This document shows positions 15,114-41,911 of a DNA stretch of 42,242 nucleotides, one piece after another. Numbering within the stretch: the stretch's first letter is position 1; each line of letters opens with the position of its first letter. The position numbers and the translations under genes are program-made. Below the pieces are notes generated by a model, which had not been told where the DNA came from, did not search any database, and saw nothing but the letters and a program-made list of their open reading frames with translations. This DNA comes from a phage, in sequence record PX871047.1. One strand, given 5' to 3'.

Positions 15114-15526
15114 TGGGCTACTTTGAGGACTTAACAAAAGCGTTTGACGTGCCGCTGGTATCGTTCGGAACCGCCAACGGCATCAAGGTTGCGCTTGAAA
15201 ACATCGACGCGCCAACGTCAACCAATACCCCGTATCTGGCAAGTTACATGTTGCTCGCTGATACGGAGCAGGCGGATTTGTTCTTCACGGAACAACGCTC
15301 AGGTGTTTATCAGGTCGACATTAACTACGCATCGGTGAAAGGTAGCGCGCCAATCAATAAAATGGCAGACTTACTTAACACGGCATTCAAAGCAGGTAAG
15401 TCATTTTCACGTAACGACATCTGCGCCGAGGTTCAATCGGTTAGCCTGGGGCCACTGATTGTAGAAAACGGATGGGCCAAACGACCATTGTCAATTAACT
15501 TTATTGCATTCACCAAGAGGCTGTGA
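15110..15526 (+). CDS. tail completion/terminator protein (putative)
   Basis: Track ORF immediately before major tail gene. Confidence 0.4.
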   Translation: MMGYFEDLTKAFDVPLVSFGTANGIKVALENIDAPTSTNTPYLASYMLLADTEQADLFFTEQRSGVYQVDINYASVKGSAPINKMADLLNTAFKAGKSFSRNDICAEVQSVSLGPLIVENGWAKRPLSINFIAFTKRL

Positions 15527-16695
15527 ATATGGCTACAACTCCTTTTAAGGGCGCGAATACCGCGCAATTCTATGTGGCGGAAGTGACCCCGGGCGTAACA
15601 CCAAGTAACCCGGTATGGTCGCCGTTGCGCAACACTGGCGGCGTTCCTGCGGTAACCCGCGATGCGCTGACCTCCAACGAACTGGACGGCAGCCGTGAAA
15701 CTACGTCCATCCGCACTGGTAACAAGCAGGTCAGCGGAGAGTATGCCATTGAGCTTAGCTCCCGTAGTCAGGATGATTTCCTCGCTGGTGCGATGACATC
15801 TACGTGGCAGGATGGGGTAGAGATTACGGGTGCAGAAATTACGGTCGCCCCCGTAGGTAAAACATTCACCCGCGCCGCTGGTAGCTTCATTACCGACGGT
15901 GTAGAAGTTGGCGACCTGATTGCGTTCACCGACTTAACCGGCGACAACGCAAAACCGTTTATCGTGACCGCGGTTTCTGCTCTTGTAGTTACGGGCGCGG
16001 GCATTCAGCACACGCTGACAGCAGAGACTGTAACCACCGACGCTAAAACCGGCGACAAACTGGAAACCGGTAACGCATGTAAGACGTTCTCCATCCTGAC
16101 ATGGTTCAAAGGACAGTGCGGGAACCCTGACGCGTACATGTTGACCAAAGGCGTGGAAATCTCCGGTTTCACCATTGAACAGGCCGTAAACGCGATGGTG
16201 ACAGGCAGCTTCCCGTTCATCGGTCTGAGTCAGGAAATTCTTTCCACACCGCCAGCAGGTTCTGATTTCTCTCAGGTGACGTTTACTGATGAGCCGTTCT
16301 CCTCTGTAGATGTGTCTGTGTTCGACGGTTCTACGCCGTTGCGTTGCGATACTCTGACCATCACCAACGACAACGGCGCATCTGCTCAGTTCGAACTCGG
16401 CAACAGCAGCGTTGCGTTCGTGGAACGAGGTCGCGCGGCTAACACCTTCTCCATCTCCGGCAAGCTGTACGACATGGCGATGATTCAGAAGTTTATCAAC
16501 GAACAGCAGGTAGAGATTAACTCTATTCTGGCGGGGGTAAACGGTGCTATGTCTTTCAGTTTGAAACGTGCCGAACTTACGGCGGTCACACCAGAAATAT
16601 CTGGCCCGGAATCAATTACCCAAAGTATAGAAGGGCAGTCCACAGGCAATCAGTACCAGTCGTCTATTGTTATCCAGCGTATCACCTACGCATAA
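15523..16695 (+). CDS. major tail protein (putative)
   Basis: 390-aa ORF, last gene before terminator, upstream of chaperone/tape-measure genes. Confidence 0.5.
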   Translation: MNMATTPFKGANTAQFYVAEVTPGVTPSNPVWSPLRNTGGVPAVTRDALTSNELDGSRETTSIRTGNKQVSGEYAIELSSRSQDDFLAGAMTSTWQDGVEITGAEITVAPVGKTFTRAAGSFITDGVEVGDLIAFTDLTGDNAKPFIVTAVSALVVTGAGIQHTLTAETVTTDAKTGDKLETGNACKTFSILTWFKGQCGNPDAYMLTKGVEISGFTIEQAVNAMVTGSFPFIGLSQEILSTPPAGSDFSQVTFTDEPFSSVDVSVFDGSTPLRCDTLTITNDNGASAQFELGNSSVAFVERGRAANTFSISGKLYDMAMIQKFINEQQVEINSILAGVNGAMSFSLKRAELTAVTPEISGPESITQSIEGQSTGNQYQSSIVIQRITYA

Positions 16696-16700
16696 AACTA

Positions 16701-16723
16701 AGGCCCCGAAAGGGGCCTTTTTC
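16701..16723. terminator. bidirectional intrinsic terminator
   Basis: AGGCCCC / GGGGCCT stem, GAAA loop, TTTTCT; near-identical to terminator at 29235. Confidence 0.7.
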
Positions 16724-17947: not shown

Positions 17948-19074
17948 CCCAGCATCTCCGGTGAAATAGTTAAACGTGCAACCTCACCATATTCGGCGCT
18001 ATAAGTAATTACATTTGCACTGCGCCCTGACATCCAACCGCCGCGTGAGGCATAGGCGTCTTTAGCCGCTAAGGTTCGGTGTTGCTCAACAATCATGTTA
18101 CGGCTTTCTACAATCTTCTGATGGTGCAGGTGGCCTACGTGGGCGTAGCTGTAAACACTCTCTCCGAACGCTTTGCGGAACTTAGCAATCATTACCGGTT
18201 CGATAGCGTCGAATCGTGCTTTATGCCCGTGATGGAAGAACAGCGTCGTTTTGCCGTGTTGCACCATCTTGTAAACATCCGGCGACGTATCGACGAACAC
18301 ACGAGGCTCATTGTCGTACAGCGTGCTGAACATCTCAGCCAGCCAAATCATTCCGCTTTCGTCGTGGTTCCCTTGCACGATAAGCAAGCGAACATTTTTA
18401 TGCTTAACGAGTGCCATATCAACAACACGGCGGACCATACGAATCATGTAGCGGACCAGTTTCTGATAGCGCGTGTCCGCGTCAAGAACATGACCACTCG
18501 CTGGCGTAACCGCATCCAGGCTATCGAAGTGTGCAAGGTCACCTAGCAGATTAATAACACCCGTTCCTGCATCCGGCGCTTTCTGAAACGCAGCATCGAA
18601 CCAGCGAGAGAACAGGTCTTCCGCAATCTTCATATCCCAGTCGTCGCCGCTCTCGTCGGCCCAGGCCAGCATACCGAGATGGAAATCAGACACAGTGTAA
18701 AGGTTGAGTAGTTTATCGTCGCGTTTAGCGCGGGCGGCTTTAACAGGCGCAACTGGCGTAATCTCTGACTTCATGCCTTCGATTACGGCTTTCATCAACT
18801 CGACCTGACGTTCGGCGTCAGTGTCTGTCTTAACCCATTGCAACTTAGTGTTGCCGGACTCATCCACCAGGGACGACGTCCCTTTAATCTTGTAGCCGTC
18901 AGGAACAAGGTGACTAACGTCACGCCCGTGACCCACGCCTTTCTTGGCCAGCTTCGCTTTACGGATACGAATAACGCGGTCTGAGATGCCGTATTTACGG
19001 GCAATGTCGATATTCTTCATCCCGGCGTTCAATTCTTCCTGTAACTGTTCGTCGGTTATTTTCTTCCGGGCCAT
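17944..19074 (-). CDS. HTH-domain calcineurin-like metallophosphoesterase
   Basis: N-terminal HTH-like NIDIARKYGISDRVIRIRK; metallophosphoesterase motifs DFHLG, GDLAHFD, GNHD, HHGH, GHLHH. Confidence 0.6.
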   Translation of the reverse strand: MARKKITDEQLQEELNAGMKNIDIARKYGISDRVIRIRKAKLAKKGVGHGRDVSHLVPDGYKIKGTSSLVDESGNTKLQWVKTDTDAERQVELMKAVIEGMKSEITPVAPVKAARAKRDDKLLNLYTVSDFHLGMLAWADESGDDWDMKIAEDLFSRWFDAAFQKAPDAGTGVINLLGDLAHFDSLDAVTPASGHVLDADTRYQKLVRYMIRMVRRVVDMALVKHKNVRLLIVQGNHDESGMIWLAEMFSTLYDNEPRVFVDTSPDVYKMVQHGKTTLFFHHGHKARFDAIEPVMIAKFRKAFGESVYSYAHVGHLHHQKIVESRNMIVEQHRTLAAKDAYASRGGWMSGRSANVITYSAEYGEVARLTISPEMLG

Positions 19075-19112
19075 GCTTATGTCCTCATGTGTAGGATTTG
19101 TCCTATACTAGC

Positions 19113-19304
19113 TTACTTCTCGTTAACATTCGAGTTGCAAGCCCAGATTAAAATAAAGACCCACGGCAGCAGAGCCCAGCCAAGAAACAGGTTAGCCATG
19201 AATATTGCCAACTTCGCTTTATGGCCACGCATATGGGCTACTAAAAACGGGATAAAATAAACTAAAACGATAATGATTAAGAAGAACATAGTAATGCCAG
19301 TCAT
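19113..19304 (-). CDS. superinfection-immunity-like small membrane protein
   Basis: Two TM segments with RGH...NLFLGWALLPW pattern; AGGAGC RBS; first gene after promoter 19346-19374. Confidence 0.5.
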   Translation of the reverse strand: MTGITMFFLIIIVLVYFIPFLVAHMRGHKAKLAIFMANLFLGWALLPWVFILIWACNSNVNEK

Positions 19305-19345
19305 GGTGTAGCTCCTGTTTGAGTTAACATTGTTGGTGTAAGTGA

Positions 19346-19374
19346 ATAGTATCCTATTATGTTGGGGTGTGCAA
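19346..19374 (-). promoter_or_regulatory. promoter with embedded AATAG-N4-CTATT dyad (type A)
   Basis: Minus strand TTGCAC - 17 nt - TACTAT; 33-bp block 19342-19374 identical to reverse complement of 41273-41305. Confidence 0.6.
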
Positions 19375-19481
19375 GTAATGTGTTAGAATTATTTTGCGCC
19401 TAGTGTCGCACACGAAAAGCGGGTGGTTCCCGTCTGGCGCATTCACATTAACCAGTAACCTCTTAACCAAAGGATTAAAGA

Positions 19482-19898
19482 ATGAAACTTTCTGATTTTT
19501 ATTACGAAGCTGAGGCAGAAAAAGGCGCCCGTATGCCGATCCCACTGAAAGACGGCACCGATTCAGGGGAGTGGCTGAACGTTGTTTCACCGGAGGCAGA
19601 CGTTGCCGTTAAAGCTATGAGGGCGTTTACACTTGCGTACCGCGCGGCATTAGGTAAATTGAAACCGCTTCGTGATAAATGCGAGGAACTGAAAGATTTC
19701 TCGGAATACAATATCAAGATGGAAGACGCCGCAACGGACCTTAACCGCCAGTTAGCGCTTGAACTGGTTAACGGTTGGAGTCTCGACGATGAATTTAATA
19801 AAGAGAACCTAAATACTCTTTTCTCACAATATACACGACTCGCTGAACACGTTGTTGTTTTCCACAATGAACAGCTACGCCAATTGCAGGAAAAGTAG
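19482..19898 (+). CDS. tail assembly chaperone (G-like, putative)
   Basis: Acidic 138-aa ORF directly upstream of tape measure; followed by -1 frame ORF. Confidence 0.45.
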   Translation: MKLSDFYYEAEAEKGARMPIPLKDGTDSGEWLNVVSPEADVAVKAMRAFTLAYRAALGKLKPLRDKCEELKDFSEYNIKMEDAATDLNRQLALELVNGWSLDDEFNKENLNTLFSQYTRLAEHVVVFHNEQLRQLQEK

Positions 19899-20263
19899 AC
19901 GCGTTGCTCCAGTTTGCCCGTTGGAACTTCATAACCCGCCACAAACGGCGGGAGTTTGACAGTATCGCAGATGGGCATAAAGCCGCGCTAATTGCTATGG
20001 GGGCTATGCAAGACGCGCCGGAAGCAACGCAGGACACCGGGCCGGAATGCCCCCCTGAACTATTAACCACCTTCGAGAAGTACCGGGAAATCAAATTTAC
20101 CCGCCGAGTGGATGACGACGGCATCAAGATGTACCCGCGCGAACAGTTAAGATGGTCGGATTTAGTGGCATACAGCACCGTTTCAGGCCAGAATATAGGC
20201 ATGTTTGAATCTGACATCATCATGAGCTTAGACGCTATTTTCGAGGGTAGAAACGATGGCTGA
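19889..20263 (+). CDS. tail assembly chaperone frameshift extension (GT-like, putative)
   Basis: ORF in -1 frame relative to 19482..19898, open from 19871; candidate slip site A_AAG at 19892-19895 next to TAG stop. Confidence 0.35.
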   Translation, partial: GKVDALLQFARWNFITRHKRREFDSIADGHKAALIAMGAMQDAPEATQDTGPECPPELLTTFEKYREIKFTRRVDDDGIKMYPREQLRWSDLVAYSTVSGQNIGMFESDIIMSLDAIFEGRNDG

Positions 20264-22595: not shown

Positions 22596-23978
22596 ATGAG
22601 TGATTTGAGATTCCCTATGTCCCTTCGACCAATAGTGTCGAAGGGGTACTCCCAAACGCGAGGGAGTAATATCTGGCGTACAGAAGTGCAAGGCGGCGTT
22701 CCGCGTCAGGGCCGAGACACATACTTCGAACCGGTGCCGATTAGCGTTACCCTGGTTGTGTCGTCACTAGGCCGCCAGGCTTTCTATAGCTTTCTGAATA
22801 ACATAGACGGCGGGGCGTCTTCGTTCATCATGCCTCACGATACCGGTTTAGGTATCGAAGACCACCAGGTTCTTATTACGTCTGATATTAGCGATAGCAC
22901 TGACGATGGTAAGAACTGGGTGATTACGTTCACTGCTACGGCAGAGAGAACAGCGATTCAGGAAGATACATGCTTTACGAAGAATCTGCCAGATTTGTTC
23001 GGTTGCTACGGCGATTATTTAGGTAGTTTTCTGAAAATATACGCGAACTATGAGACTACGTTCCCGCGCATCTGGAGCGATGAAGGGCCCGCAGGATACC
23101 CGCCGATTAACCTTCTGGCGTCCGCCCTGGATAGCCGCATTGTGTACGACGGGCCGCAGGTTTATTACATCAACCGAAACGGCAATCTTGTGCAGTCCGC
23201 GGCTAATGAATGGCCTCTTACGTTTATTGATGGTGTCGCTGTCGGGCGTGTGCCGCCAGAAGGTGCCTCGCGCAATTTGTACATAAATTCGGAAACATGG
23301 GCAACTGGACTCCAAACATCTGTGCGGAATAATGCCGAAGTATCACCTCGCGGCGATATAACTATGGCGGAAGTCACTGCGACAACTTCAAACTCTGAGC
23401 ATTTCGCTAACGACAGGGCAATAGGGGTGCAGCAAGATGAGCTGTATTCATATTCAATATTTGTAAAAGCCGCTAGCGACCCACTAAACCTTTACCTAAG
23501 GGTGACAGCGGGCACCGTAGCGAGCACAATGTTCAACCCTGTTACTGGCGCATTTGTCGCGAACTTAGGAGTTAATTTTGTATCAAAAAATGCCGTTAGG
23601 GTTTCCGAGGACACATATAGGGTAACAATGGTCTTCCGGGCTGGCGCAACTAGAAACTCTGTTATCCGTGTGCAGCTTGCATCTAGTGTGTCCCCAATAT
23701 TCGCGGGTACTGGGGGAAATGGCATTTATGTATGGGGGGCGCAGTTAGAGAAATCGGCAAATACTACCAGTTACATACAGACATCAGCTATTGCAGGAGA
23801 TAGAGTATCGGCATCGGCAAAAGTAGTAATGAGCGGCGCAACGAGCATTGATATTACCTATTCCGATGGTTCTGTGGTAAACGTTCCGTCTGTTAACGGC
23901 TACGCCACCATTCCGCAGGCCGATTCTGCGTGGGGGAGTAAATATATCACTCGCATTGATTTTAACGTGGACGGTTAA
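22596..23978 (+). CDS. distal/minor tail protein
   Basis: First gene after tape measure. Confidence 0.45.
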   Translation: MSDLRFPMSLRPIVSKGYSQTRGSNIWRTEVQGGVPRQGRDTYFEPVPISVTLVVSSLGRQAFYSFLNNIDGGASSFIMPHDTGLGIEDHQVLITSDISDSTDDGKNWVITFTATAERTAIQEDTCFTKNLPDLFGCYGDYLGSFLKIYANYETTFPRIWSDEGPAGYPPINLLASALDSRIVYDGPQVYYINRNGNLVQSAANEWPLTFIDGVAVGRVPPEGASRNLYINSETWATGLQTSVRNNAEVSPRGDITMAEVTATTSNSEHFANDRAIGVQQDELYSYSIFVKAASDPLNLYLRVTAGTVASTMFNPVTGAFVANLGVNFVSKNAVRVSEDTYRVTMVFRAGATRNSVIRVQLASSVSPIFAGTGGNGIYVWGAQLEKSANTTSYIQTSAIAGDRVSASAKVVMSGATSIDITYSDGSVVNVPSVNGYATIPQADSAWGSKYITRIDFNVDG

Positions 23979-24497: not shown

Positions 24498-24859
24498 ATA
24501 TTAATTCTTATACTGGGTTGCCGTACGATTTTCGCCGTCGTAATTGCTGGCACCACGTGCGTAACGTTCGTACCGACGCTGGTCTTTTTACGCCAGAGTT
24601 TAACGTCGCTTCACCAACACAGATTAACGACGCCTTCGAAGAAGGCCATAAAGACACTAAAGGCCTCGTACGCGTAGAAACTCCGCAAAACTTCGATGCC
24701 GTGCTGATGGCGACACGGCACAGAAACCGTGTAATCTGGCACGCTGGCGTATATTATGATGGTATGGTCAGTCATTGCGAGTTAGCAAGTCGCCAGGTAC
24801 GGTTAGACCGACTGGAAGACTTGCGCGAAACTTATGCGGAGATAGAATTTTGGCGCTGA
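24494..24859 (+). CDS. tail assembly protein, possible Cys/His peptidase-like
   Basis: NCWHH...HAGVYY...SHC residues; position in tail-tip cluster. Confidence 0.35.
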   Translation: MNINSYTGLPYDFRRRNCWHHVRNVRTDAGLFTPEFNVASPTQINDAFEEGHKDTKGLVRVETPQNFDAVLMATRHRNRVIWHAGVYYDGMVSHCELASRQVRLDRLEDLRETYAEIEFWR

Positions 24860-27402
24860 TATTACATTACACCCGTAACGAAGACGGTACTTTTGACCGC
24901 AAACGGTATAACGTACCTCCGATGGAATACGTCGTTGCTAACATCCCAGACGGGGTACCTGTGCGTATTTACCGCGGCGAGATTGGTGATGATACAGACG
25001 TAACGGAAAACTTCGAAGCGCTGAAAGAAGATGACGTTTTCCATATCATCGAGGGCGCTGGCGGCGGTGGTGGTTTTCTTGGTAAACTCCTGGACCCTTT
25101 GGGTGTGCTTAAATTTGTTACCAAGTTGATTTCTCCGTCGCAGAAAACGCCTAAAACGAGTTTAGCGAACCAGCAGGCGGAGTCTCCAAACAACAGCCTG
25201 ACGGACCGAAACAATAAACCGCGTCCGTATGAACGGTCGTATGATATTTGCGGCAGGGTCCAGACTATCCCTAATGACCTCATGACTACGTATAAGGTCT
25301 TCAATGACGCAGGTGTGGTAGTCGAATACGGCTACTATGACGCCGGTCGTGGGTATCTTGATATTAAAGCCGAAGACATCACCGACGGCGATACTAAAGT
25401 GCAGGAGATTACAGGAACTTCTGTAGCGGTATACGCCCCATTTACATCCCCTAACAATACAAATACGCCTCAGCTTCTGGTGGGGGACCCTATCAATCAG
25501 AATCTGTACATAACTATTGCCTCGAACGAGGTAGATGGGGCCGTTCTTAAAGCGCAGAACGATATCAGGGTTAATCCCAGTGATACCGGTGAGATTTCAT
25601 TGCAGGGGGCAACTGGTGTCGTCCGCGATAACACTGGCGACTCTGCTTTCTCTGAGATTTTATCGGTTGGGGACATAGCTGTTTTTAACCTTATTCTGGT
25701 AAAAGACGTGGCTAACGTCAGTGGTAGCTATACTGTTACATACGTAGATGACTTTGAGGTAAGAGTAGCCGCCGGAGGGGTGTTGTCAGAATGGCAAAAA
25801 TTGCCATCGGGGTTCACTCCTTTAACGCAAGGTACCGAAGCATGGATTTCACCGTCGAACACTTACGATAAGTCGTTAACGGACTGGACTACTTTAAACC
25901 GCCTGGAAGTTGAACGCGTAGTAGCCAACATCGCGGCCGCGAATGGTATGTATAAAGACAACGGCAGTAAATTGCGCACGTCGGTAACTGTCGAGCTTCA
26001 GTATCAACTCCTTGATGAAACTGGCGTGCCGTACGGGGATGTTTACTCAAAACAGGCCGTTATATCAGGTCGTTCTGCGGATTACACAGGTGTTACTATT
26101 TACGCCGACTTGCCCATGCGGTCGAAAGTTAGGGTACGGGCCCGCCGTGTTACTAACCTTGACCTTAGTTTCGAGGGGACCGTGGTAGACGAGGTTTCCT
26201 ACATCAACCTTTATGGGCAGGTACGCGACACTACACCGCATTACGGCAACCGTACTACCGTGCACTCCGCACGTAAGCAGACGCCGCGGGCCGCGGAGAT
26301 TAAGCAGCCGCAACTACGTATGGTTGCCACAGAGATGGTGTACAAATACCTCGGCAACGGCGTATTCGACACGGTTATGACACCGAATACTCAGGCGATT
26401 CAGTCCTTAATCCGTCTTGCCCGCGACCCGGTAGTAGGTAATCTCAACCTAACCACATCCAATATGGACAAGTTGTTAGCGACTCAGAACGAGATAGAAA
26501 ACTATTTCGGTAACGCAGAGGCTGGTCAATTCTGCTACACTTTTGACGATTATAAAATGACTATGCAGGACATAATCAGCACAATAGCCGACGCTATTTT
26601 CTGCACACCATATCGTAAAGGGCAAGACATATTACTGGATTTCGAGCGCCCTCGTATGGGGCCGGAGATGGTATTCACCCACCGCAGCAAAACTACCGCG
26701 GCGGAGAAGTGGACGCGCACGTTTAACGACGCACAGGTATACGATAGTCTCAAGTTTTCATACATCGACCCAGATACTAACGTCAAAGAGACTATTAGCA
26801 TCCCGGCCGAAGGAGGTGTTAATACCGAAACGTACGACTCTAAGGGTATCCGTAACTATCGACAGGCGTACTGGGCAGCTTATCGACGTTACCAGAAAAA
26901 CTTGTTGAAGAAAGTCACGGTGTCCTTTACGGCGACAGAAGAAGGAGTTTTTGTGCTGCCTGGTCGCGCAATAAGCGTCGTTAAAGGTTCGCGCGTAGCG
27001 CCTCAAGACGGCTATGTTGTTGCCGTTAATGGTCTTACTCTGACTTTATCACAGCCGGTTACTTTTACCCCCGGAGACGACCACTCATTGATTCTTAAGA
27101 AGCGTGACGGTGGTGTTCAAAGTGTTGCCGTTGTGCCCGGAAGCCACGACCGTGAAGTGGTTATGCTCTCTGCGCCTCAGGAGGCGATATACACAGGGAA
27201 TAGCGCACTAAAAACTGAGTTTTCATTCGGCAACGAAGCAAGGCATAATGCTCAGATGATTCTTGTTTCTACAGTTGACCCTGGAGACGACAGAACGGTT
27301 AAGATTACTGGGATTAACTACGAAGCAGATTTCTATAAATACGACGGCGTCGCACCTTTCGGTAGCGGTTTCTCCGGCGGATTCAGCAACGGTTTTAGTT
27401 AA
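24850..27402 (+). CDS. tail tip / central tail fibre protein (putative)
   Basis: Large ORF in tail-tip cluster; TTG at 24850 after GGAGAT; alternative ATG 24922; track ORF begins 24775. Confidence 0.5.
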   Translation: MALILHYTRNEDGTFDRKRYNVPPMEYVVANIPDGVPVRIYRGEIGDDTDVTENFEALKEDDVFHIIEGAGGGGGFLGKLLDPLGVLKFVTKLISPSQKTPKTSLANQQAESPNNSLTDRNNKPRPYERSYDICGRVQTIPNDLMTTYKVFNDAGVVVEYGYYDAGRGYLDIKAEDITDGDTKVQEITGTSVAVYAPFTSPNNTNTPQLLVGDPINQNLYITIASNEVDGAVLKAQNDIRVNPSDTGEISLQGATGVVRDNTGDSAFSEILSVGDIAVFNLILVKDVANVSGSYTVTYVDDFEVRVAAGGVLSEWQKLPSGFTPLTQGTEAWISPSNTYDKSLTDWTTLNRLEVERVVANIAAANGMYKDNGSKLRTSVTVELQYQLLDETGVPYGDVYSKQAVISGRSADYTGVTIYADLPMRSKVRVRARRVTNLDLSFEGTVVDEVSYINLYGQVRDTTPHYGNRTTVHSARKQTPRAAEIKQPQLRMVATEMVYKYLGNGVFDTVMTPNTQAIQSLIRLARDPVVGNLNLTTSNMDKLLATQNEIENYFGNAEAGQFCYTFDDYKMTMQDIISTIADAIFCTPYRKGQDILLDFERPRMGPEMVFTHRSKTTAAEKWTRTFNDAQVYDSLKFSYIDPDTNVKETISIPAEGGVNTETYDSKGIRNYRQAYWAAYRRYQKNLLKKVTVSFTATEEGVFVLPGRAISVVKGSRVAPQDGYVVAVNGLTLTLSQPVTFTPGDDHSLILKKRDGGVQSVAVVPGSHDREVVMLSAPQEAIYTGNSALKTEFSFGNEARHNAQMILVSTVDPGDDRTVKITGINYEADFYKYDGVAPFGSGFSGGFSNGFS

Positions 27403-27414
27403 AGAGGACTCTAT

Positions 27415-29229
27415 ATGTCAAGCGGATGCGGTGACGTTTTAAGCCTGGCGGATTTACAAACCGCCAAGAAACACCAGATTTTCGAAGCCGAGGTTATCAC
27501 CGGTAAATCCGGCGGCGTTGCTACGGGTGCCGATATTGATTACGCAACCGATGCTGTTACAGGGCAAACCCAGAAAACACTCCCCGCCGTGTTGCGTGAT
27601 GCCGTATTTACTCCGGTTGCGTGGGATTTCTCTACAGGCGGTACGTTAACAGTTAATGACCGCAACAAAGTGGTTTATGACCCGGTGAGCAAAACGTGGT
27701 ACTCGTATGCAGGTACGTTGCCGGTTGTTGTCCCGGCATCGTTTAACCCGGTTGGTAATGCTAACTGGAAGCCACAGACCGACCCTGACTTACGACAGGA
27801 TTTAGCGGCTACTACCGCGCAGAAAGGAGCAAGCCTTGTCGGATATAAATCACCAGTAGCAGGCTCCGTAGCTACGACCTTGCAGTCAAAAGAATCGGAA
27901 TACGTCTCTGTGTATGACTTCGGGGCGAAAGCTGAACCCGGATTTGATAATGCCACGGCATTTGCATTAGTAAAAACTGCCGCGGAAGCAGGTATTACAA
28001 TTTTGTTCCCAGCTGGGACTTATGAAACATCATCCGAGCTTACATTCACGTCAGCAGTTAAACTTGTGGGTATGCCTGGTACACGTATTAAGATAACTGC
28101 ACCAGGAAAAGCTCATGTCATGTGCATTGACCTTCGCGGCCCAGTTGGTGATTACTGGGGTTACGGGGTGCACCTGGAAAACTTCATTCTTGACGGTAAT
28201 GGTAATGCGGTAGATGGATTATCTCTGCGCGGTGTTATCTCATCACGCTTTGTTAATATACGTGCTACTAACGTTACTCGTGCCGGTTTACATCGTTGGT
28301 GGACTCAATTATGTACCTTTGAGAATTTCCAGTGCTCATCTAACGTTGAAGCATTTACTACTACACCTGTTTACGGAATCCTCACTGACTGTGAGTTTGA
28401 TACCGGAAATGACCGTGGAAGCTCTGCAGATACGATTACTAACCCAGAAATAGAGCATGTATCCGGTACAGGCATATGTGGGGTGTTTGAGTCAAACTCC
28501 GTATACATAAACGGTACATCTGAAGGTAATAATATCGGAATAGCTTTCGGTAATACTGATAGCCGAAACCAGTCTGTTAGTAATACTGTAATAGGTATGG
28601 ACCTTGAGGTTAACACGGCTACAGATATTCTACTTTATTCGAACACCTATGCTAACGACTTCATTGGTTTGAAGGCAGGATATAACTCTCCTAGCATCCA
28701 GGTACAAGGTTCTTTTGGGAATAAGTGGCTTGGCGGTTCATGTGCTGGTATTGATTTTTATAGCGAGTCCCATGATAACAGAGTGTATGGTGTTTCACTG
28801 TTAGGCGAGGGGGCTGTAATAACAGATGCGGGGAGCCGCAACAAATACACTGATTGTTTTAATATTTCTACAGCAGCGGTCTCTGTATCAACAAACCCTT
28901 ACCCAAACCGCGGTAATAATGTTCTTGCTGCGAATGCCACCGCAACGATTGACCCTTACCGAGATAATCTTACTGTTGTTACCGCAACAAGTAGCCCTAT
29001 TAATATTGTGTCCTCAACTACACCACTGGACGGCGCAAGAATGGATTTGGTAATCCATAATAAAACTGGGTCGGATACCTTAGTTATCAACTGGTCTTCT
29101 GCGTTCAGGGTTGCTGGTTTTACAGCCCCCGCTGCCGGGAGACATCGTGGTATTTCCCTGGTCTATGATGCCAACTATGGCTACTGGTGTGTTGTTGGGA
29201 TGGCAACGGCTGACGCAGTTAGCGTATAA
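27415..29229 (+). CDS. tailspike / receptor-binding depolymerase with right-handed beta-helix fold
   Basis: VSVYDFGAKAEPGFDNATAFALVKTAAEAGITILFPAGTY resembles N-terminus of pectate-lyase-type beta-helix domains; AAAGAGGA RBS. Confidence 0.6.
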   Translation: MSSGCGDVLSLADLQTAKKHQIFEAEVITGKSGGVATGADIDYATDAVTGQTQKTLPAVLRDAVFTPVAWDFSTGGTLTVNDRNKVVYDPVSKTWYSYAGTLPVVVPASFNPVGNANWKPQTDPDLRQDLAATTAQKGASLVGYKSPVAGSVATTLQSKESEYVSVYDFGAKAEPGFDNATAFALVKTAAEAGITILFPAGTYETSSELTFTSAVKLVGMPGTRIKITAPGKAHVMCIDLRGPVGDYWGYGVHLENFILDGNGNAVDGLSLRGVISSRFVNIRATNVTRAGLHRWWTQLCTFENFQCSSNVEAFTTTPVYGILTDCEFDTGNDRGSSADTITNPEIEHVSGTGICGVFESNSVYINGTSEGNNIGIAFGNTDSRNQSVSNTVIGMDLEVNTATDILLYSNTYANDFIGLKAGYNSPSIQVQGSFGNKWLGGSCAGIDFYSESHDNRVYGVSLLGEGAVITDAGSRNKYTDCFNISTAAVSVSTNPYPNRGNNVLAANATATIDPYRDNLTVVTATSSPINIVSSTTPLDGARMDLVIHNKTGSDTLVINWSSAFRVAGFTAPAAGRHRGISLVYDANYGYWCVVGMATADAVSV

Positions 29230-29234
29230 AACTA

Positions 29235-29260
29235 AGGCCCCGTCTGGGGCCTTTTTTTTT
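29235..29260. terminator. bidirectional intrinsic terminator
   Basis: AGGCCCC / GGGGCCT stem followed by eight T; A-rich upstream. Confidence 0.8.
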
Positions 29261-29398
29261 CTACTCTTCTGATAACTTCTCCAGTACAAACGCCAGTTGC
29301 GCGTTGGCGGCGTCTCTTTGCTGCCGTAATCGTAGGACCTCTTCTTCAAGTTCCTTGATACGTTTTTGCAATGCTGGAATCGGGGCTATGATGTTCAT
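29261..29398 (-). CDS. hypothetical small coiled-coil protein (45 aa)
   Basis: ATGA coupling to upstream gene; ends at terminator; below track cut-off. Confidence 0.35.
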   Translation of the reverse strand: MNIIAPIPALQKRIKELEEEVLRLRQQRDAANAQLAFVLEKLSEE

Positions 29399-29580
29399 TT
29401 CTTACCTTCGCTTTTCTTGAAACTGCGCTTTATATCCGGCGGAGTGTAGCATCGTGAATTTTCGTACTTACCGTCCGAGCTTACCAAAACAAAGCTGTTG
29501 CCGTCTTTTGATATGTACTCGATGGTGAAAGTATTGAATGAATGTACGCTGTATATTTCGTCTCCAACATTAAGTTTCAT
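29395..29580 (-). CDS. hypothetical protein
   Basis: Track ORF, coupled to helicase gene. Confidence 0.45.
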   Translation of the reverse strand: MKLNVGDEIYSVHSFNTFTIEYISKDGNSFVLVSSDGKYENSRCYTPPDIKRSFKKSEGKK

Positions 29581-31007
29581 TTCTTACTCCTACGTTTCAT
29601 GTAATTAAGCAGCTCTTCCTGTACAGATTTCTTCTCATCTGTACGCGCGGCAACAACCTCGTCCAGCGTGTCTTTAGCAACGATGTGATAGAGAAACACC
29701 GGGCGCTCGTGGCCTGCCTGTTTCTGGCGGACCGGGCCTATACGCTCGACAACCTGCAAATAGTGCTCAAGGTTCCAGCCTTGCGAGATGAACGCCAGAT
29801 GATGTCCGCCATCCTGTAAATTCAAACCATGCCCGGCTGACGCAGGGTGTACGCATAAGATTTCTATTTCGCCGCGGTTCCACGCTTCCATCTGCTTATT
29901 ACCCTTAGCACCTTTGGCAAACGCCTGTGCTTGCGGGAATCGTTTAAGGATGCGCTCCAGTTCGTGCTTGAACTGATAGGCTACCAGTAGCGGCGCGCCC
30001 TGTAACTCCTCAACAATTGACTCCAGCGCATCCAGTTTCGTGTCGTGCACTTTCTCCCAGTCTTTTGTCGCTTCTCCGTCTGGTCCCGACACATATACGG
30101 CACCGGATGCAATCTGCAAACACTTCGACGTCTTCGCTGCCGCGTTAGCTGCCTCAACTTCTCCGCTCTCCAGTTCCGCAAATAACTTCTCCTCCATATC
30201 TATGTACGCCTGACGCGCTTTCTTCGGCAGGTCGATTTCAACAGGTACGATAACCGGCGCTTCGCATCCGAACCACTCAGCGGCGTCAATCGTGAGACTG
30301 ATGTCCTTCATCTTCTGGTGGATTTCAGTATCCGCACCCGGGCGGGCGTGGTACTCACGTGCCATAGCCGATTTGCCTTTTTGCACCGAGTTAAACCAGC
30401 GGTCGGTGAATGCCGTGTACGATGAACCAAGTCGCTCGCCTGCGTCGATAAACCAGTTCTGCCCCCACAGGTCTTTGAGGCCGTTTGGCGACGGCGTACC
30501 TGTCAGGTTAATGAACCGCTTAACCTTGCCGAACGCCACTTTGCTGAGTGCCTTCGCGCGCTTGCTGCCGCCAGAACGGCTACGGAAAGATTTAAGTTTC
30601 GTGCTTTCATCGGCAACGATAACCGTAAAAGGCCAGTCGTCTTTGCCGTAGTAGTCAATCAGCCACTCGATAACTTCGTAGTTCGTACACACTACGTTAG
30701 CATCCGACTCCAGCGCCGCGATGCGGCGCTTCTCTGAACCAGTCGCATCGACGACACGCAGACAAGGGAAGTTCCAACGTGCCTGTTCCGCGGGCCACGT
30801 ACCTGACGCAACACGTAAAGGGGCAAGAATTAACACTCGGTCGTCGTCATTAAGTTGCCCATTACGGAACAGTCGATTGAGAACCCACAACGTTGACCCC
30901 GACTTGCCGCTGCCCATCGAAGCCCAAATATTACAGCGAGGGTGCCGCAGCATGAACGAAGTCATGAGCTTTTGGTACTCTCGACGGATAAATTTAGACA
31001 TAATCAA
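29577..31007 (-). CDS. SNF2/DEAD-like superfamily 2 helicase
   Basis: Walker A MGSGKSGST, motif II VADEST, C-terminal helicase-C-like region. Confidence 0.7.
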   Translation of the reverse strand: MIMSKFIRREYQKLMTSFMLRHPRCNIWASMGSGKSGSTLWVLNRLFRNGQLNDDDRVLILAPLRVASGTWPAEQARWNFPCLRVVDATGSEKRRIAALESDANVVCTNYEVIEWLIDYYGKDDWPFTVIVADESTKLKSFRSRSGGSKRAKALSKVAFGKVKRFINLTGTPSPNGLKDLWGQNWFIDAGERLGSSYTAFTDRWFNSVQKGKSAMAREYHARPGADTEIHQKMKDISLTIDAAEWFGCEAPVIVPVEIDLPKKARQAYIDMEEKLFAELESGEVEAANAAAKTSKCLQIASGAVYVSGPDGEATKDWEKVHDTKLDALESIVEELQGAPLLVAYQFKHELERILKRFPQAQAFAKGAKGNKQMEAWNRGEIEILCVHPASAGHGLNLQDGGHHLAFISQGWNLEHYLQVVERIGPVRQKQAGHERPVFLYHIVAKDTLDEVVAARTDEKKSVQEELLNYMKRRSKK

Positions 31008-31198
31008 CCCTTAACGTAGAGCACCAGCTCTTTACGCCCGAACGCCGTAACGTTACCCGTTACATCTTCGATAACCAGTTTACCGTTCGACTCGACGAAC
31101 ACCGTATCAACGGCAACCGGACGTCGGGTCTTAACGTTGAAAATCATGTCGCCCGGTACGATGTCACGTGCGGGTTTGCGGTCATATTCGTGTTTCAT
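31004..31198 (-). CDS. hypothetical protein
   Basis: Track ORF, ATGA-coupled to helicase. Confidence 0.45.
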   Translation of the reverse strand: MKHEYDRKPARDIVPGDMIFNVKTRRPVAVDTVFVESNGKLVIEDVTGNVTAFGRKELVLYVKG

Positions 31199-38065: not shown

Positions 38066-40333
38066 CTATTCCAAATCCTCCTCTGTCACTATCAGCATTT
38101 CATTCGGCTCGTATATTGTCTTCGGAATCTTGTTATCCGTTATCCTGGTATTAAGCCTGTAACGACCAGGGATTATCTGATTGTTTTCGTCAGTACCCGG
38201 AACAAGATACCCGGCCTCGACCATTTTCTTAATCTTCCCTCGCTCTATGGCTTCTTTGGAGTTAAACGCCTTCGCATTGGGGTCGGACTGTGCGAGCTTA
38301 TTTGCGGCGGCTACCGTGATACCTTCGTTGCCGTTGTAGGTTCCTTCCGCCAGTTCAAACGCGGCCAGTATCGTGGCCTCGGAACTGTTGACGGCGTTCT
38401 CTACGGTTTTACGTACGTTTTCTTTACCTTCCTTTGTTAGCCCTTCTTCGCGCTCTTTTTCCTCGTCGGTTTTGAACGGTTCGAAACCCCACGGCATCAG
38501 CACAAGCGCCTTGTGTGGTTCAGGCAGGTCGAGGTTTACTATTGTGCCGTATTCCTCTGTGCTACCGAGGAACTCAACAGCGCGGTACTCTTTCGGCGGC
38601 GGCGCTTCACGGAACTGTACCGACTCAAGCACCATACCAACCGTCTTCTGTTGAGGCCCGTGCTTAAATTTCGAGTGGTATACGTTTATCTGGCGGTCGG
38701 TCGCGCGTTCAATTGTCAGTTCCACGTCGACGCCAGCATACAGCGCCCCACTACCACGGGCTTTCTTTCCACCCTTCGGCGTATGGTGAACAACGCCTAC
38801 CGCGGCTTTAGTCGCGTCACGCACTTCTTTCAGGATGGCGATAACTTTACCCATGCCGATTGCCGTTGATGAGCTGTTCTCGTCGAACTTATCAATAGTC
38901 AGTGCCAGGGTCTGGTTGAGGGTGTCAAACGCGACCATGCCAATTGGCTCGTCGCCAGCAGTTTCGCGCATTAACTTAATCAGGCTCTTCAGTTTGCCGA
39001 CTTCGCCCATATCGATGACATGTACGTAATCTTTACCCTCTGCGCCGTATTTAGCAGCGAGCGCGTCAATACGTGTACGTGTGGCCGCGCCGCCCTCACC
39101 GTCGATATAGAAGTGGTGGCAACGCTGCGTATCAGCTCCCGCAAACCGGTATCCTGCGGCGCTAAGGTACATCATCCCCAGTGTATAAAACGATTTGTAC
39201 GTGCCAGATTCCCCGACGATATCCCAGATACAATCTGATGGCATGTACCCTTCAACGACGAAATCAGCCTTTACCGGTTCCGGTAACTCATCCTCCTCTG
39301 AGTCCTCGTCGTCTTCCAGGTCGTCGAGGCTGCATGAAACTGATTCACGCGCGCCCCAGCCAATTGCCTCAGCGACTTCACTGAACGGCAGCCCAGTCGC
39401 ATCGCACGCATACTTCCACACCTCTTTCGGTGACATGCCTTCGGTTGCCGTAATGTCGGTGTCGTGAATCATGGTTACGTTAGGCGCTTCATATCCTTCG
39501 CGTGGGAAGCACAGCAGGAAGTCGTCCGGGCGCGGGGTAGGGTCACTGTAGTTTTCGGCGTGTTCTGGTGTGGCTGGCATTTTCAGGCCGCGGGGCGTCA
39601 GGACTCCGCCGTACTCGAACGCCAGTGCTTCGAACGCATCAGTAAACGCTGTGCGCAGTTCTTCCGGTATCTGGTAGTCAGATGCGCTGCTCACCTCGTA
39701 ATCCGGGGTGCCTTCCAGTAACTCGTCCGGGTCAATCAGGTCGTTGCGGCGCGACCAGATAACGGTAGCGCCGACAGGAGGCAGGTACATCGGCTGGGAC
39801 AGGGTAAAACCGCTGCGGTCGGCGCCCATGCCCTTGAAGAAGTGCTCCAGCAGACCGTGGCGGACGCGGATGATATCACCGCCTTCTACCGGGCGCGCCA
39901 GCGGCATGACGACACGGAAACGCGGCGATTCGTCAGTGTGCGATGCCGTAGTGTACAGGCACAACGCTACACGACTGCGCTTAACCAGACGCACAGCCTC
40001 CTGATACTCTTCCGGTGTTGCGCTGTCGAAGTCCAGATACGCCAGCGACGATTCGCTTACAGACGCGTCACAACGGTAGAAGAAGCCTTTACGCGCTTGC
40101 TTAAAGTCACCGGTTTCCGGGTCTTTTACGGTGCTGTGCGTTGAGTCGCACGCGGCGGTAATGTAGCCCGGCGCGGTCTTTGGGTTAATCCCGTCACGAA
40201 CAGCATCTAGCGGCTGGATTAACTCTTTCAGGTCGTCCAGTGTTGCCGTGTGCGTGGTTCTGACGTTTATATCCTTTTTCTCCGCCCGCGCGTTGCGACG
40301 AGACCATGAATAGGATAAAATTACATCGGACAT
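38066..40333 (-). CDS. primase-helicase (AEP-type primase/polymerase domain fused to RecA-like helicase domain)
   Basis: N-terminal LDFD-containing primase-polymerase-like region; C-terminal Walker A GESGTYKS and RecA-like core. Confidence 0.6.
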   Translation of the reverse strand: MSDVILSYSWSRRNARAEKKDINVRTTHTATLDDLKELIQPLDAVRDGINPKTAPGYITAACDSTHSTVKDPETGDFKQARKGFFYRCDASVSESSLAYLDFDSATPEEYQEAVRLVKRSRVALCLYTTASHTDESPRFRVVMPLARPVEGGDIIRVRHGLLEHFFKGMGADRSGFTLSQPMYLPPVGATVIWSRRNDLIDPDELLEGTPDYEVSSASDYQIPEELRTAFTDAFEALAFEYGGVLTPRGLKMPATPEHAENYSDPTPRPDDFLLCFPREGYEAPNVTMIHDTDITATEGMSPKEVWKYACDATGLPFSEVAEAIGWGARESVSCSLDDLEDDEDSEEDELPEPVKADFVVEGYMPSDCIWDIVGESGTYKSFYTLGMMYLSAAGYRFAGADTQRCHHFYIDGEGGAATRTRIDALAAKYGAEGKDYVHVIDMGEVGKLKSLIKLMRETAGDEPIGMVAFDTLNQTLALTIDKFDENSSSTAIGMGKVIAILKEVRDATKAAVGVVHHTPKGGKKARGSGALYAGVDVELTIERATDRQINVYHSKFKHGPQQKTVGMVLESVQFREAPPPKEYRAVEFLGSTEEYGTIVNLDLPEPHKALVLMPWGFEPFKTDEEKEREEGLTKEGKENVRKTVENAVNSSEATILAAFELAEGTYNGNEGITVAAANKLAQSDPNAKAFNSKEAIERGKIKKMVEAGYLVPGTDENNQIIPGRYRLNTRITDNKIPKTIYEPNEMLIVTEEDLE

Positions 40334-40391
40334 GTGTATATTCCTTCAGCAAGTAATTTAGCCTCGGCGTTCACCGCGTCGGGGCTTTCTT

Positions 40392-40682
40392 TTAACGTTT
40401 AGCCAGACATTCCATTAAATGTGAATATTTTCTGTAATAGCAAGGAACTAAATCACACCCAAAATAATGATAAACATAAGCCAAGTGGTCAGTAACATCT
40501 ATAGCGGCTGACATTGTGCTAAGACGGCGAAGGCTAATCAACTGTAATTCTTCCGTAATGCAAAATGGTTCATACGTATCAAGTTTGCAAGAAACGTTAA
40601 AACACAGAGCATAGCCGTCTTGTGCGGAGTAGACCAGAAATGCGCTGTCGTTCTCTTTATCGTGAAAAATTACACCTTTCAT
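40392..40682 (-). CDS. hypothetical protein
   Basis: Track ORF; AAGGAGA RBS; AT-rich. Confidence 0.45.
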   Translation of the reverse strand: MKGVIFHDKENDSAFLVYSAQDGYALCFNVSCKLDTYEPFCITEELQLISLRRLSTMSAAIDVTDHLAYVYHYFGCDLVPCYYRKYSHLMECLAKR

Positions 40683-40849
40683 TTCACATTCTCCTTAACC
40701 CACGCTTCTACTTTATTTCGGTCAAACGTACCCGGCATACGGCGGCCCATTACTTTAACGCTGCAATCAGGAAACTTCCCGCTTTTAATCCAGTTATTTA
40801 TTGTCTGACGAGTAACTCCGATTAATTCTGCAACCTCGTTTATAGTCAT
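40679..40849 (-). CDS. AlpA/excisionase-family HTH regulator (putative)
   Basis: MTINEVAELIGVTRQTINNWIKSGKFP; AGGAGA RBS; ATG 40849 (track ORF begins 40939). Confidence 0.55.
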   Translation of the reverse strand: MTINEVAELIGVTRQTINNWIKSGKFPDCSVKVMGRRMPGTFDRNKVEAWVKENVK

Positions 40850-40878
40850 TTCACGATCTCCTGTGTAAGATGTAGTGA

Positions 40879-40907
40879 AGTATAAAGCGGTAACTTTGTA
40901 AAAGCAA
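40879..40907 (-). promoter_or_regulatory. promoter of replication operon
   Basis: Minus strand TTGCTT - 17 nt - TATACT. Confidence 0.5.
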
Positions 40908-40954
40908 CCAAAACAACACACAAAGCCACTAAGATACAAAAGATGCTACTGGGA

Positions 40955-40983
40955 TTGACTTTTACTTAAAAATGTGCTAAGCT
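40955..40983 (+). promoter_or_regulatory. promoter of ORF-less element, copy 2
   Basis: TTGACT - 17 nt - TAAGCT with TGn; paralog of 9704-9732. Confidence 0.45.
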
Positions 40984-40989
40984 TCACTG

Positions 40990-41234
40990 AGCTTGTGAGA
41001 TATCGCAAGCGACCGCGGAGCGGCAGGGAACGCAACGCGTGCCATTAGGCACTTGAGTGTAGTTCCGCTGGCGCTTTCGGAAGGGCCAAAGTCTATTGTT
41101 AATCCCGCCTAAATACCCAAGTCACTGATAATTAAAGTTTCTATAGTTGCCGTAAGCGAGGTAGAGAGTACTTCACTCCGCTGTGGTGGGCTAACGCCCA
41201 CCCACTGCGTTGCGTACTCTTTTAAGAAACGAAA
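40990..41234 (+). ncRNA. candidate ORF-less structured transcript (putative sRNA), copy 2
   Basis: No ATG-initiated ORF; 5' hairpin GCTTGT/GCAAGC (40991-41010); conserved block 41064-41097; nested terminal hairpins AGAGTAC...GGTGGGC/GCCCACC...GTACTCT then TTT. Confidence 0.35.
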
Positions 41235-41272
41235 GAATCACAACGGCAACGTAACTATTCTCTTGCACACCC

Positions 41273-41301
41273 CAACATAATAGGATACTATTCACTTATC
41301 G
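41273..41301 (+). promoter_or_regulatory. early promoter with embedded AATAG-N4-CTATT dyad (type A)
   Basis: TTGCAC - 17 nt - TACTAT; dyad 41289-41302. Confidence 0.6.
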
Positions 41302-41325
41302 AAACGAGACAGAGGAGTGAGGGTT

Positions 41326-41908: not shown

Positions 41909-41911
41909 GTT

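Follow-up and report, generated by a model that had tools for sequence, protein, structure and literature searches.

Genomic context of the tailspike gene

The window, which is the whole stretch of 42,242 nucleotides of phage record PX871047.1, contained an ATG-initiated ORF encoding the tailspike of a Kagunavirus coliphage (Table 1). Flank similarity and synteny assign the window genome to the siphophages of the genus Kagunavirus (Guernseyvirinae), the flanks being 87-95% identical at the nucleotide level to the classified Kagunaviruses AV104 and BUCT789, in which the genes follow the same order. Directly upstream of the tailspike ORF, a gene coding for a TipJ-family central tail fibre (J-like; 24850-27402; E 9.6e-113 against NF040662 TipJ) was found. 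Published work on Kagunavirus places the tailspike immediately behind the J-like fibre and describes a dependence of these phages on surface glycans (PMC11990801). The tailspike matched PHROG 18522 ('tail protein') with an E-value of 9.5e-180, residues 77-602 covering profile positions 80-611 of 612. The NCBIfam search returned no family for the tailspike, and searching the window for tRNAs and Rfam families gave no hits.

Near-identical proteins, both annotated as 'tailspike' and both encoded by Kagunavirus-type genomes, occurred in vB_EcoS_GZMU_E2010 (PV845598; 97% amino acid identity over the full length) and hz69 (ON556632; 94.5% over the full length), at the same locus as in the window, with the J-like fibre gene on one side and the terminator and helicase on the other. 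Compared with GZMU_E2010, the window displayed a clustered divergent patch (28555-28880; 75-93% nucleotide identity), the rest of the gene being almost identical. No host serotype or substrate was found in the literature for hz69 or GZMU_E2010.

Table 1. Features of the tailspike locus, in nucleotide positions of the window (tailspike residues in brackets)
Feature	Position	Strand	Remark
Tailspike ORF (604 aa)	27415..29229	+	Closes the tail operon of the + strand; PHROG 18522 match
Anchor sub-module 1 (aa 1-62)	27415..27600	+	Conserved across Guernseyvirinae; largely disordered or of low confidence in the monomer model
Anchor sub-module 2 (aa 63-125), small beta domain of Tail_spike_N type	27601..27789	+	PF18668 match, modelled strands
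5' junction zone, neck helix motif LRQDLA(A/S) (aa 126-136)	27790..27822	+	Homology ends or starts here in relatives
Exchangeable receptor-binding cassette (aa ~137-602)	27823..29220	+	AT-rich, GC 0.45, GC3 0.37
Cap motif PF12708 (aa 164-330)	27904-28404	+	Pfam, below cutoff
Right-handed beta-helix (aa ~195-480)	27997-28854	+	Predicted fold
C-terminal beta-sandwich (aa ~499-600)	28909-29214	+	Part of the cassette
3' junction, last two codons and stop (GCG TAT AA context)	29221..29229	+	Kagunavirus homology resumes; alignment A3
Palindromic intrinsic terminator AAGGCCCC-GTCT-GGGGCCTT, then T-run	29234..29262	.	Terminator scan, both strands

The N-terminal anchor and the junctions of the cassette

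The N-terminal part of about 130 residues (up to aa 1-143) is conserved, at up to 87% amino acid identity, in hundreds of Kagunavirus and Jerseyvirus records whose C-terminal modules differ from that of the window. The conserved anchor domain claimed in the first-pass annotation was thus retrieved, but the anchor is composite in turn, as it has breakpoint clusters of its own. Mapped over 509 phage records, these clusters were situated at ~27602 and ~27660-27675, the latter in K1H-type and other records, and the DNA homology of most Jerseyvirus records ended at query position 401-405, corresponding to ~27600-27604 in the window. The first anchor sub-module was 85.5% identical in amino acids to that of a distant Guernseyvirinae locus (L007), and residues 1-39 had a pLDDT below 50 in the monomer model. 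The second sub-module matched PF18668 (Tail_spike_N, TSP1/Gp66 N-terminal domain; aa 77-112, E 1.9e-5) above the gathering cutoff, yet marginally (25.1 vs 25 bits) and partially (profile positions 19-54 of 70). In the same model, this sub-module displayed beta strands at residues 66-120 (pLDDT 78-92), followed by a neck helix at residues 124-131. The motif D..LRxDLA...KG was found in PF18668-type homologues.

Homology to AV104 and BUCT789, as determined with blastn, stopped at 27805 and resumed at 29220-29223, and that to the sister Kagunaviruses overall ended at 27785-27818. In the opposite sense, the similarity of the window to L005, which has a Swiduovirus-like siphophage backbone, was confined to 27790-29242 (70% nucleotide identity), and that to L006, which has an HC6/ST1UNAM-like siphophage backbone, to 27822-29220 (84%). 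A junction was expected near 27900 (residue ~150) from the first inspection; a junction does exist, but the homology junction lies at 27806-27822 (aa ~131-136), about 100 nt further upstream. The 17-mer TTACGACAGGATTTAGC was common to the window and L005 at the 5' junction (alignment A2). It was rejected as a widely conserved exact crossover site, its 10 IMG/VR matches being roughly at chance level for a collection of such size and including a single tailspike, namely that of a near-identical Kagunavirus contig. At the 3' side, the terminator is located at the convergent junction with the replication genes on the minus strand. It forms a conserved 3' flank of the cassette, as it was found at the same place in L001-L003, and it was missing from the Kuttervirus locus L004; its stem occurred in three copies in the window vs zero expected by chance.

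Distribution of the cassette among other phages

Residues ~131-604 recurred behind unrelated N-termini in Swiduovirus-like and HC6/ST1UNAM-like siphophages, Kuttervirus myophages, P22-like prophages, and T7-tail-type proteins. This RBD family was found behind N-termini of PF18668, PF09008, PF03906, and PF12218; at 43-56% amino acid identity, the cassette was present behind P22 head-binding, T7-tail, and Kuttervirus N-termini. Together with the junctions at 27805 and 29220, this occurrence behind unrelated N-termini and in unrelated backbones bears out the earlier proposal of an exchanged module on a conserved anchor. Within the cassette, a recent exchange between the window and the L006 lineage is evident at the sequence level, as their two genes, 84% identical on average, share uninterrupted matches of 98 and 108 nt as well as blocks of 97-100% identity. 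An exact run of such length was obtained in none of 2000 permutations. Among 5,426 complete E. coli genomes, a single weak prophage match (66% nucleotide identity, 43% coverage) was retrieved, from which no serotype could be inferred.

As for the Kutterviruses, tail spike protein 2 of Salmonella phage PhiSH19 and its relatives was homologous over residues 77-597 (43% amino acid identity) and the TSP of E. coli phage vB_EcoM_JN03 over residues 24-603 (47.5%). These proteins have the pectate-lyase-clan beta-helix in common with the tailspike of the window, and module exchange has been reported as the basis of their host range. However, they belong to a myovirus scaffold of branched TSPs, have longer N-termini (724 aa), and display almost no DNA similarity. 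A recent transfer from known Kutterviruses was rejected, as the DNA likeness to JN03 was limited to stretches of 50-218 nt at 66-78%. The Kuttervirus subtype paper gives no receptor for PhiSH19 Tsp2.

Base composition and codon usage

The segment downstream of ~27900 had been described as more AT-rich than the N-terminal part, and computation confirmed this, the GC content being 0.516 for nucleotides 27415-27900 and 0.448 for 27901-29229, compared with 0.510 for the whole window. The value of 0.448 belongs to the lowest 3% among all windows of 1329 bp, and the bin 28001-29000 (GC 0.437) had the lowest GC content among all 42 bins of 1 kb. The compositional shift is mostly situated at synonymous sites, since GC3 decreased from 0.49 to 0.37 across the tailspike and GC at the first and second codon positions only from 0.53 to 0.49. 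Expressed per module, the first ~130 codons had a GC of 0.52 and a GC3 of ~0.50, and the remainder a GC of 0.45 and a GC3 of 0.37, below which none of the 32 major genes fell. The N-terminal value is close to those of the J-like gene (0.517) and gene 22596-23978 (0.495), in agreement with the compositional likeness to neighbouring tail genes noticed beforehand. The 15 lowest GC3 values of 244 windows of 150 codons in the 32 major genes were all located in the tailspike ORF, from codon ~100 onward (0.33-0.41, vs a mean of 0.593 and a standard deviation of 0.065 for the other genes). The enrichment in Gly, Asn, Thr, and Ser ascribed to the beta-helix was real but modest, the summed fraction being 0.29 for residues 1-130, 0.37 for residues 131-604, and 0.39 for the beta-helix.

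The within-gene change point taken alone is modestly significant. The maximum likelihood change point in GC3 was codon 172 (nt 27928; support interval codons 104-192; permutation p 0.028), and a weaker change point at the nucleotide level, computed over the tailspike and J genes together, was nt 27942 (p ~0.09). As the latter is non-significant by itself, the argument is carried by the synonymous-site and genome-wide tests. In the codon-usage likelihood comparison, the cassette favoured the L006-type model by +0.081 per codon, in total +37.3 lnL (bootstrap interval 18-56), vs -0.161 to +0.007 per codon for the 31 other genes of the window, and the N-terminal 130 codons fitted the backbone of the window better. 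The codon usage of the cassette thus fits siphophages of ~46% GC better than its own genome. The cassettes of AV104 and BUCT789 were likewise AT-richer than their own anchors (GC3 of 0.45 and 0.44 vs 0.585 and 0.54, respectively), and AT-richness may be partly generic to the RBD gene pool.

Predicted fold and function of the cassette

The central domain of the cassette is modelled as a right-handed parallel beta-helix. The pectate-lyase-type motif recorded at first pass stood in part: PF12708 (Pect-lyase_RHGA_epim, formerly Pectate_lyase_3) was matched by 55 of the 76 aligned homologues at E ≤ 0.001 (best E 3e-21), but the score of the tailspike itself (23.2 bits, E 6.9e-5) was below the gathering cutoff of 27 bits. 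'Pectate lyase' is here the name of a fold superfamily only and does not denote lyase chemistry. The pectin-lyase-like superfamily (PF12708; the A-module of mannuronan C5-epimerase AlgE4 (2pyg), RbmB lyase, and polygalacturonases) spans hydrolases, lyases, and epimerases. Seven acidic residues (D260, E312, E347, E370, D396, E398, and D404) form a ladder on successive rungs of the predicted helix, and each is invariant or at least 96% conserved over the 76 homologues, which share only 36-60% identity; conservation of this kind is commonly seen in active-site grooves.

A single-sequence search of the PDB sequences yielded no relative at E ≤ 0.01, and the profile-to-PDB alignments were limited to the cap (profile positions ~145-275) and never reached the catalytic rungs. 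As these matches are restricted to the N-terminal cap, they do not distinguish between hydrolase, lyase, and binding-only functions. The solved tailspikes CBA120 TSP3 (5w6f), Sf6 (2vbk), Det7 gp208 (6f7k), and phi29 gp12 (3gq7) were only 12-18% identical, with catalytic residues that could not be aligned. The protein, the single tailspike of the phage, presumably acts as a trimer in receptor binding; it would recognise an E. coli surface polysaccharide (O-antigen or capsule) and probably cleaves it.

Origin of the cassette

The tailspike is a mosaic, and very probably its cassette was brought in by recombination onto a Kagunavirus anchor. Three layers may be distinguished, namely an N-terminal particle anchor that is conserved in the genus (aa 1-62), a widely shared small domain of Tail_spike_N type ending in the neck helix (aa 63-~130), and an exchangeable cassette (aa ~131-604) composed of the predicted right-handed beta-helix, with conserved carboxylates in its groove, and of a beta-sandwich at the C-terminus. 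The upstream crossover would have occurred in the short patch coding for the neck helix (27790-27822) and the downstream one at the stop codon and the conserved terminator (29220-29253). Since the AT-richness and codon usage of the cassette are foreign to Kagunavirus and match those of siphophages of ~46% GC, the donor was probably an enterobacterial siphophage of this type with the same cassette, or else a common pool of low-GC genes. Recombination inside the cassette is ongoing. The two outcomes regarded beforehand as contrary to an exchange, namely a uniform composition and whole-length homology to a single tailspike lineage, were both looked for and neither was found.

The opposite direction, whereby the cassette family would be an ancestral trait of Guernseyvirinae that passed from the Kagunavirus lineage to the siphophages of ~46% GC, is rather unlikely; the AT-richness would then be a general RBD property, resulting for example from relaxed codon selection, fast turnover, or diversifying selection. 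This would agree with the AT-richer RBDs of AV104 and BUCT789 and with the distant Guernseyvirinae contig L007, which carries a collinear whole-length homologue of native-like composition at 63-75% nucleotide identity, near the backbone divergence (67-71%). The RBD family is thus not foreign to Guernseyvirinae overall, and the direction of transfer is read from composition only. Similarly, the L005 copy of the cassette has a Guernseyvirinae-like codon usage, so export from Guernseyvirinae seems to occur. However, no segment of the window genome fits worse than the cassette, whereas the L006 cassette (GC3 0.366) suits its own anchor (0.39) and is nearer to its own backbone (J-like gene 0.46). 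Furthermore, the window cassette is much nearer to L006 (84% nucleotide identity, with patches of 98-100%) than to L007 (63.5%), and vertical descent in genomes of comparable GC would leave without explanation a fall of 0.2 in GC3 from the 0.568 of the L007 cassette. This last value, found for a homologous cassette with the same fold, also argues against the absence of any transfer, in which case Gly/Asn/Thr/Ser-rich beta-helix repeats would have forced AT-rich codons. Although the rise in these residues and a GC at the first and second codon positions locally down to 0.435-0.47 around residues 300-450 would fit such a by-product, the shift is mainly a third-position one, and the homology breaks and cross-backbone sharing reveal the exchange without any need of composition. 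Amino acid composition was therefore rejected as the cause of the AT-richness, and an explanation without transfer is highly improbable.

As to function, it is about as improbable as a Kagunavirus donor that the C-terminal module is a non-catalytic, binding-only RBD or an esterase/deacetylase instead of a glycan-cleaving depolymerase. The PF12708 score below cutoff and the lack of catalytic residues alignable to a characterised enzyme are in line with this, as are the structural neighbours of the beta-helix, which include adhesins (PfbA) and epimerases besides hydrolases and lyases. Against it stand the conserved acidic ladder and the nearest phage structural matches, which are the enzymatically active CBA120 TSP3, Sf6, and Det7 gp208. 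In addition, no SGNH or esterase domain was detected in domain searches of the tailspike and its homologues.

Beyond the import of a cassette onto a Kagunavirus anchor, the neck-helix patch (27790-27822) and the genome-standard palindromic terminator (29234-29253) might form a dedicated cassette-exchange system, as opposed to ordinary domain boundaries on which selection has acted as a filter. These flanks would then be preferred crossover sites for phage recombinases, sustaining an ongoing two-way RBD traffic between Guernseyvirinae and enterobacterial siphophages of ~46% GC, and the cassette might also represent a glycanase family that has so far escaped characterisation and has a specificity of its own, new to this fold. 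This extension is speculative and unlikely to hold. If it were true, the reciprocal codon-usage mismatches (window vs L006; L005 vs Guernseyvirinae) and the 98-100% patches would be traces of that traffic.

Significance for host range

Near-identical tailspikes are present in GenBank (97% amino acid identity), and the modularity has already been described for Kagunavirus by Pas et al. (2023). These authors reported that the modular O-antigen-specific receptor-binding proteins of lytic coliphages swap RBDs between genera, Kagunavirus among them, and that conserved DNA motifs flank the exchanged part (PMC10408124). The hallmarks that the paper describes for such proteins were all present in the window. 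They used a nominal cutoff of 150 residues, whereas the junction in the window is situated at residues ~126-136. The present locus is an ordinary case that establishes no new principle; it is clean and well-bounded, with a plausible donor pool and a recent cross-genus exchange. Receptor-binding modules of tailspikes determine the O-antigen or capsule types that are open to infection by a phage. Exact boundaries, here at residues ~126-136 and at the stop codon and terminator, are practical for host-range engineering in a small Kagunavirus chassis and are also useful to predict the host serotype from sequence.

Locus and genome identity

The window is essentially a Kagunavirus genome with the ORF studied here as its tailspike gene, since window 24775-31007 matched 480 phage records by megablast, mostly Salmonella and Escherichia Guernseyvirinae, the top matches being vB_EcoS_GZMU_E2010 (PV845598; 94.7% nt) and hz69 (93.4% nt), followed by classified Kagunaviruses, such as AV104 (OR352935) and BUCT789. 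The encoded protein matched PHROG 18522 (profile match, E 9.5e-180) and showed amino-acid identities of 97% with the tailspike annotated in GZMU_E2010 and 94.5% with that annotated in hz69. Kagunaviruses require surface glycans, and in their genomes the gene for the J-like fibre immediately precedes that for the tailspike (PMC11990801). The mechanical ORF list opens this J-like gene with a TTG (24775), which gives an 85-nt overlap with the gene before it; in annotated relatives, it begins about 75 nt further downstream (window ~24850). Genes beyond the tailspike terminator lie on the opposite strand; beside the helicase gene, GZMU_E2010 carries a homing-endonuclease gene of about 0.5 kb (L001, its locus, 7038-7547), which is absent from the window (~30996-31022), the flanks aligning on both sides.

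Three copies of one palindromic terminator stem, AAGGCCCC-N4-GGGGCCTT, are present (7576-7595, 16700-16719, and 29234-29253), compared with none expected in shuffles. All three lie only a few bases away from a + strand stop codon, those of 6098-7570, 15523-16695, and the tailspike gene, respectively. The copy at 16692-16722 (TAAAACTAAGGCCCCGAAAGGGGCCTTTT) is identical, loop included, to the terminator that follows the AV104 and BUCT789 tailspike loci.

Features of the tailspike locus and of the modelled protein
Feature	Position	Strand or orientation	Remarks
TipJ host-specificity family gene	24850-27402	upstream of tailspike ORF	NF040662, E 9.6e-113
Tailspike ORF	27415-29229	+	ATG start, 604 aa
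Palindromic intrinsic terminator with T-run	29234-29253	3' of tailspike ORF	terminator scan
SNF2-type helicase gene	29577-31007	opposite strand to tailspike	past terminator
N-terminus	aa 1-39		low confidence in model
Small beta domain (neck helix follows at aa 124-131)	aa ~43-120
Long beta-helix	aa ~195-480		pLDDT mostly >95
C-terminal beta-sandwich	aa ~499-600

Junctions of the exchanged module

AV104 and BUCT789 are about 93% identical to the window up to 27805 and then show no similarity until 29220-29223 (blastn). It is only within this gap of Kagunavirus homology that two metagenome-assembled siphophage loci with unrelated backbones match the window, namely L005 (27790-29242, 70% nt), with a Swiduovirus-like backbone (about 90% nt to Salmonella phage CF-SP1), and L006 (27822-29220, 85% nt), with a backbone 86-89% identical at nucleotide level to the unclassified ~47-kb phages ST1UNAM, NX263, and HC6. 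Together, these ends place the 5' junction within 27790-27822, which encodes LRQDLA(A/S), in the AlphaFold model a short helix (aa 124-131) that joins the small beta domain of the N-terminus to the beta-helix. Read from the alignments, the 3' junction lies where the gene ends, at its final two codons, its stop codon, and the adjoining terminator; this terminator is kept in Kagunaviruses and differs in L005 and L006. Domain-wise homology supports the exchanged module on a conserved anchor proposed in the first-pass annotation, with the boundary moved from ~27900 to 27806-27822.

Homology ends, mapped over 509 matching phage records chosen as a spread sample, fell into three clusters, at ~27602 (most Jerseyviruses), ~27660-27675 (K1H-type and others), and ~27785-27818 (E. 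coli Kagunaviruses), indicating that the anchor itself is layered. A dedicated, sequence-specific exchange site is argued against by the exact 17-nt junction sequence, as only one of its ten matches in IMG/VR was related. In AV104, a further ORF of 105 aa with a hypothetical annotation (L002, the AV104 locus, 5124-5441) and a shorter tailspike (490 aa) lie between anchor and conserved terminator, so that the exchanged unit can hold two genes in some Kagunaviruses.

Composition and probable source of the cassette

The GC content drops from 0.516 (27415-27900) to 0.448 (27901-29229), against 0.510 for the window. The latter part ranks among the lowest 3% of windows of its length, and 28001-29000 is the most GC-poor of all 42 1-kb bins. 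This shift is mainly synonymous, GC3 decreasing by more (0.49 to 0.37) than GC at positions 1 and 2 (0.53 to 0.49). When GC3 was taken over 150-codon windows (244 in total, from 32 major genes), the 15 windows with the lowest values (0.33-0.41, versus 0.593 +/- 0.065 elsewhere) all fell within the tailspike ORF from about codon 100 on. A GC3 likelihood change-point was located at codon 172 (nt 27928; support interval codons 104-192, permutation p 0.028); a total-GC test over the J gene and the tailspike gene was weaker (p ~0.09). The non-uniform composition noticed on first reading was hence real, as was the likeness of the N-terminal part (GC3 ~0.50) to the adjacent tail genes (0.517 and 0.495); the Gly, Asn, Thr, and Ser enrichment was genuine too, albeit modest (0.29 to 0.37-0.39). 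Further AT-rich stretches, mostly outside large ORFs, occur at 40001-42000 (GC 0.445-0.451), 19001-20000 (0.449), and 2001-4000 (0.463-0.470); for windows of 500 nt, the GC minimum (0.394) lies near 41250.

When the likelihood of synonymous codon choice was calculated under each genome's gene model, the first 130 codons fitted the window's own genes best, whereas the cassette (aa ~131-604) fitted the L006 and L005 backbones better than its own genome. For the cassette, the L006 model exceeded the window model by 0.081 per codon (sum +37.3 lnL, bootstrap interval 18-56), versus -0.161 to +0.007 for the other 31 window genes. In L006, cassette GC3 (0.366) is near that of its own anchor (0.39) and nearer its backbone (J-like gene 0.46). 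Codon fit and this GC3 make a ~46% GC phage of the L006 kind, or a shared low-GC pool, the more likely source. A collinear homologue in L007, a distant Guernseyvirinae contig, is compositionally native (GC3 0.568), and AV104 and BUCT789 carry unrelated cassettes that are likewise AT-richer than the respective anchors, so that the direction of transfer is inferred rather than demonstrated. The reverse mismatch occurs in L005 (6001-7815; Logan SRR18474651 contig), where the cassette has a GC3 of ~0.5 against a backbone of 45% GC whose J-like gene has a GC3 of 0.41. This cassette also fits Guernseyvirinae codon usage more closely than its own backbone's. Together, this hints at cassette traffic in both directions.

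Protein fold and predicted function

The AlphaFold2 model (76-sequence alignment, mean pLDDT 87, pTM 0.72) and the top-ranked Foldseek matches in the PDB (CBA120 TSP3, Sf6 tailspike, and CBA120 TSP1) indicate a right-handed parallel beta-helix of the pectin-lyase-like superfamily. PF12708 remained sub-threshold for this protein (23.2 bits versus a cutoff of 27) and was clear at family level. The pectate-lyase-type motif of the first-pass annotation corresponds to a cap motif (aa ~165-205); its name denotes the fold only, not lyase chemistry. Across the 76 homologues, seven acidic residues (D260, E312, E347, E370, D396, E398, and D404) either do not vary or are conserved to at least 96%, which suggests an active-site groove. 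No host serotype for cassette relatives was found in the literature on hz69, GZMU_E2010, and PhiSH19 Tsp2 or among 5,426 complete E. coli genomes.

Spread and recombination of the cassette

In a search of 5.8 billion proteins, residues ~72-604 or ~121-604 had homologues (40-64% identity) whose N-termini are quite different. Pfam scans of the 76 aligned members yielded PF12708 (55), PF18668 (13), PF09008 (P22 head-binding domain; 8), PF03906 (T7 tail-fibre N-terminus; 3), and PF12218 (endosialidase N-extension; 1). Among GenBank phages, the module is present in Kuttervirus tail spikes at 43-47.5% aa identity (PhiSH19 Tsp2 and relatives, and a TSP of JN03).

Between the window and L006 cassettes, runs of 98 and 108 nt match exactly and identity reaches 97-100% in certain 60-nt blocks, the remaining blocks being only 65-88% identical; such run length was reached in none of 2000 permutations of mismatch positions. 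GZMU_E2010, the closest GenBank relative, differs by one mismatch over 27607-28538, by 7-25% of nucleotides (75-93% identity) over 28555-28880, a ~330-nt patch inside the beta-helix, and is 93-100% identical again afterwards; this patch looks like a small intragenic recombination within the receptor-binding domain. This pattern indicates that recombination also shuffles segments inside this domain.

The architecture is exactly that of the Kagunavirus tailspikes of Pas et al. (2023), described for this genus and five other lytic coliphage genera (PMC10408124), and the same point was made in 2011 for the Kuttervirus homologue in the PhiSH19 paper (PMC3220722). Near-identical genes annotated as tailspikes are also deposited. 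The finding is already known, and the locus illustrates well, with clear boundaries, an established phenomenon, the exchange of receptor-binding modules on a conserved anchor.
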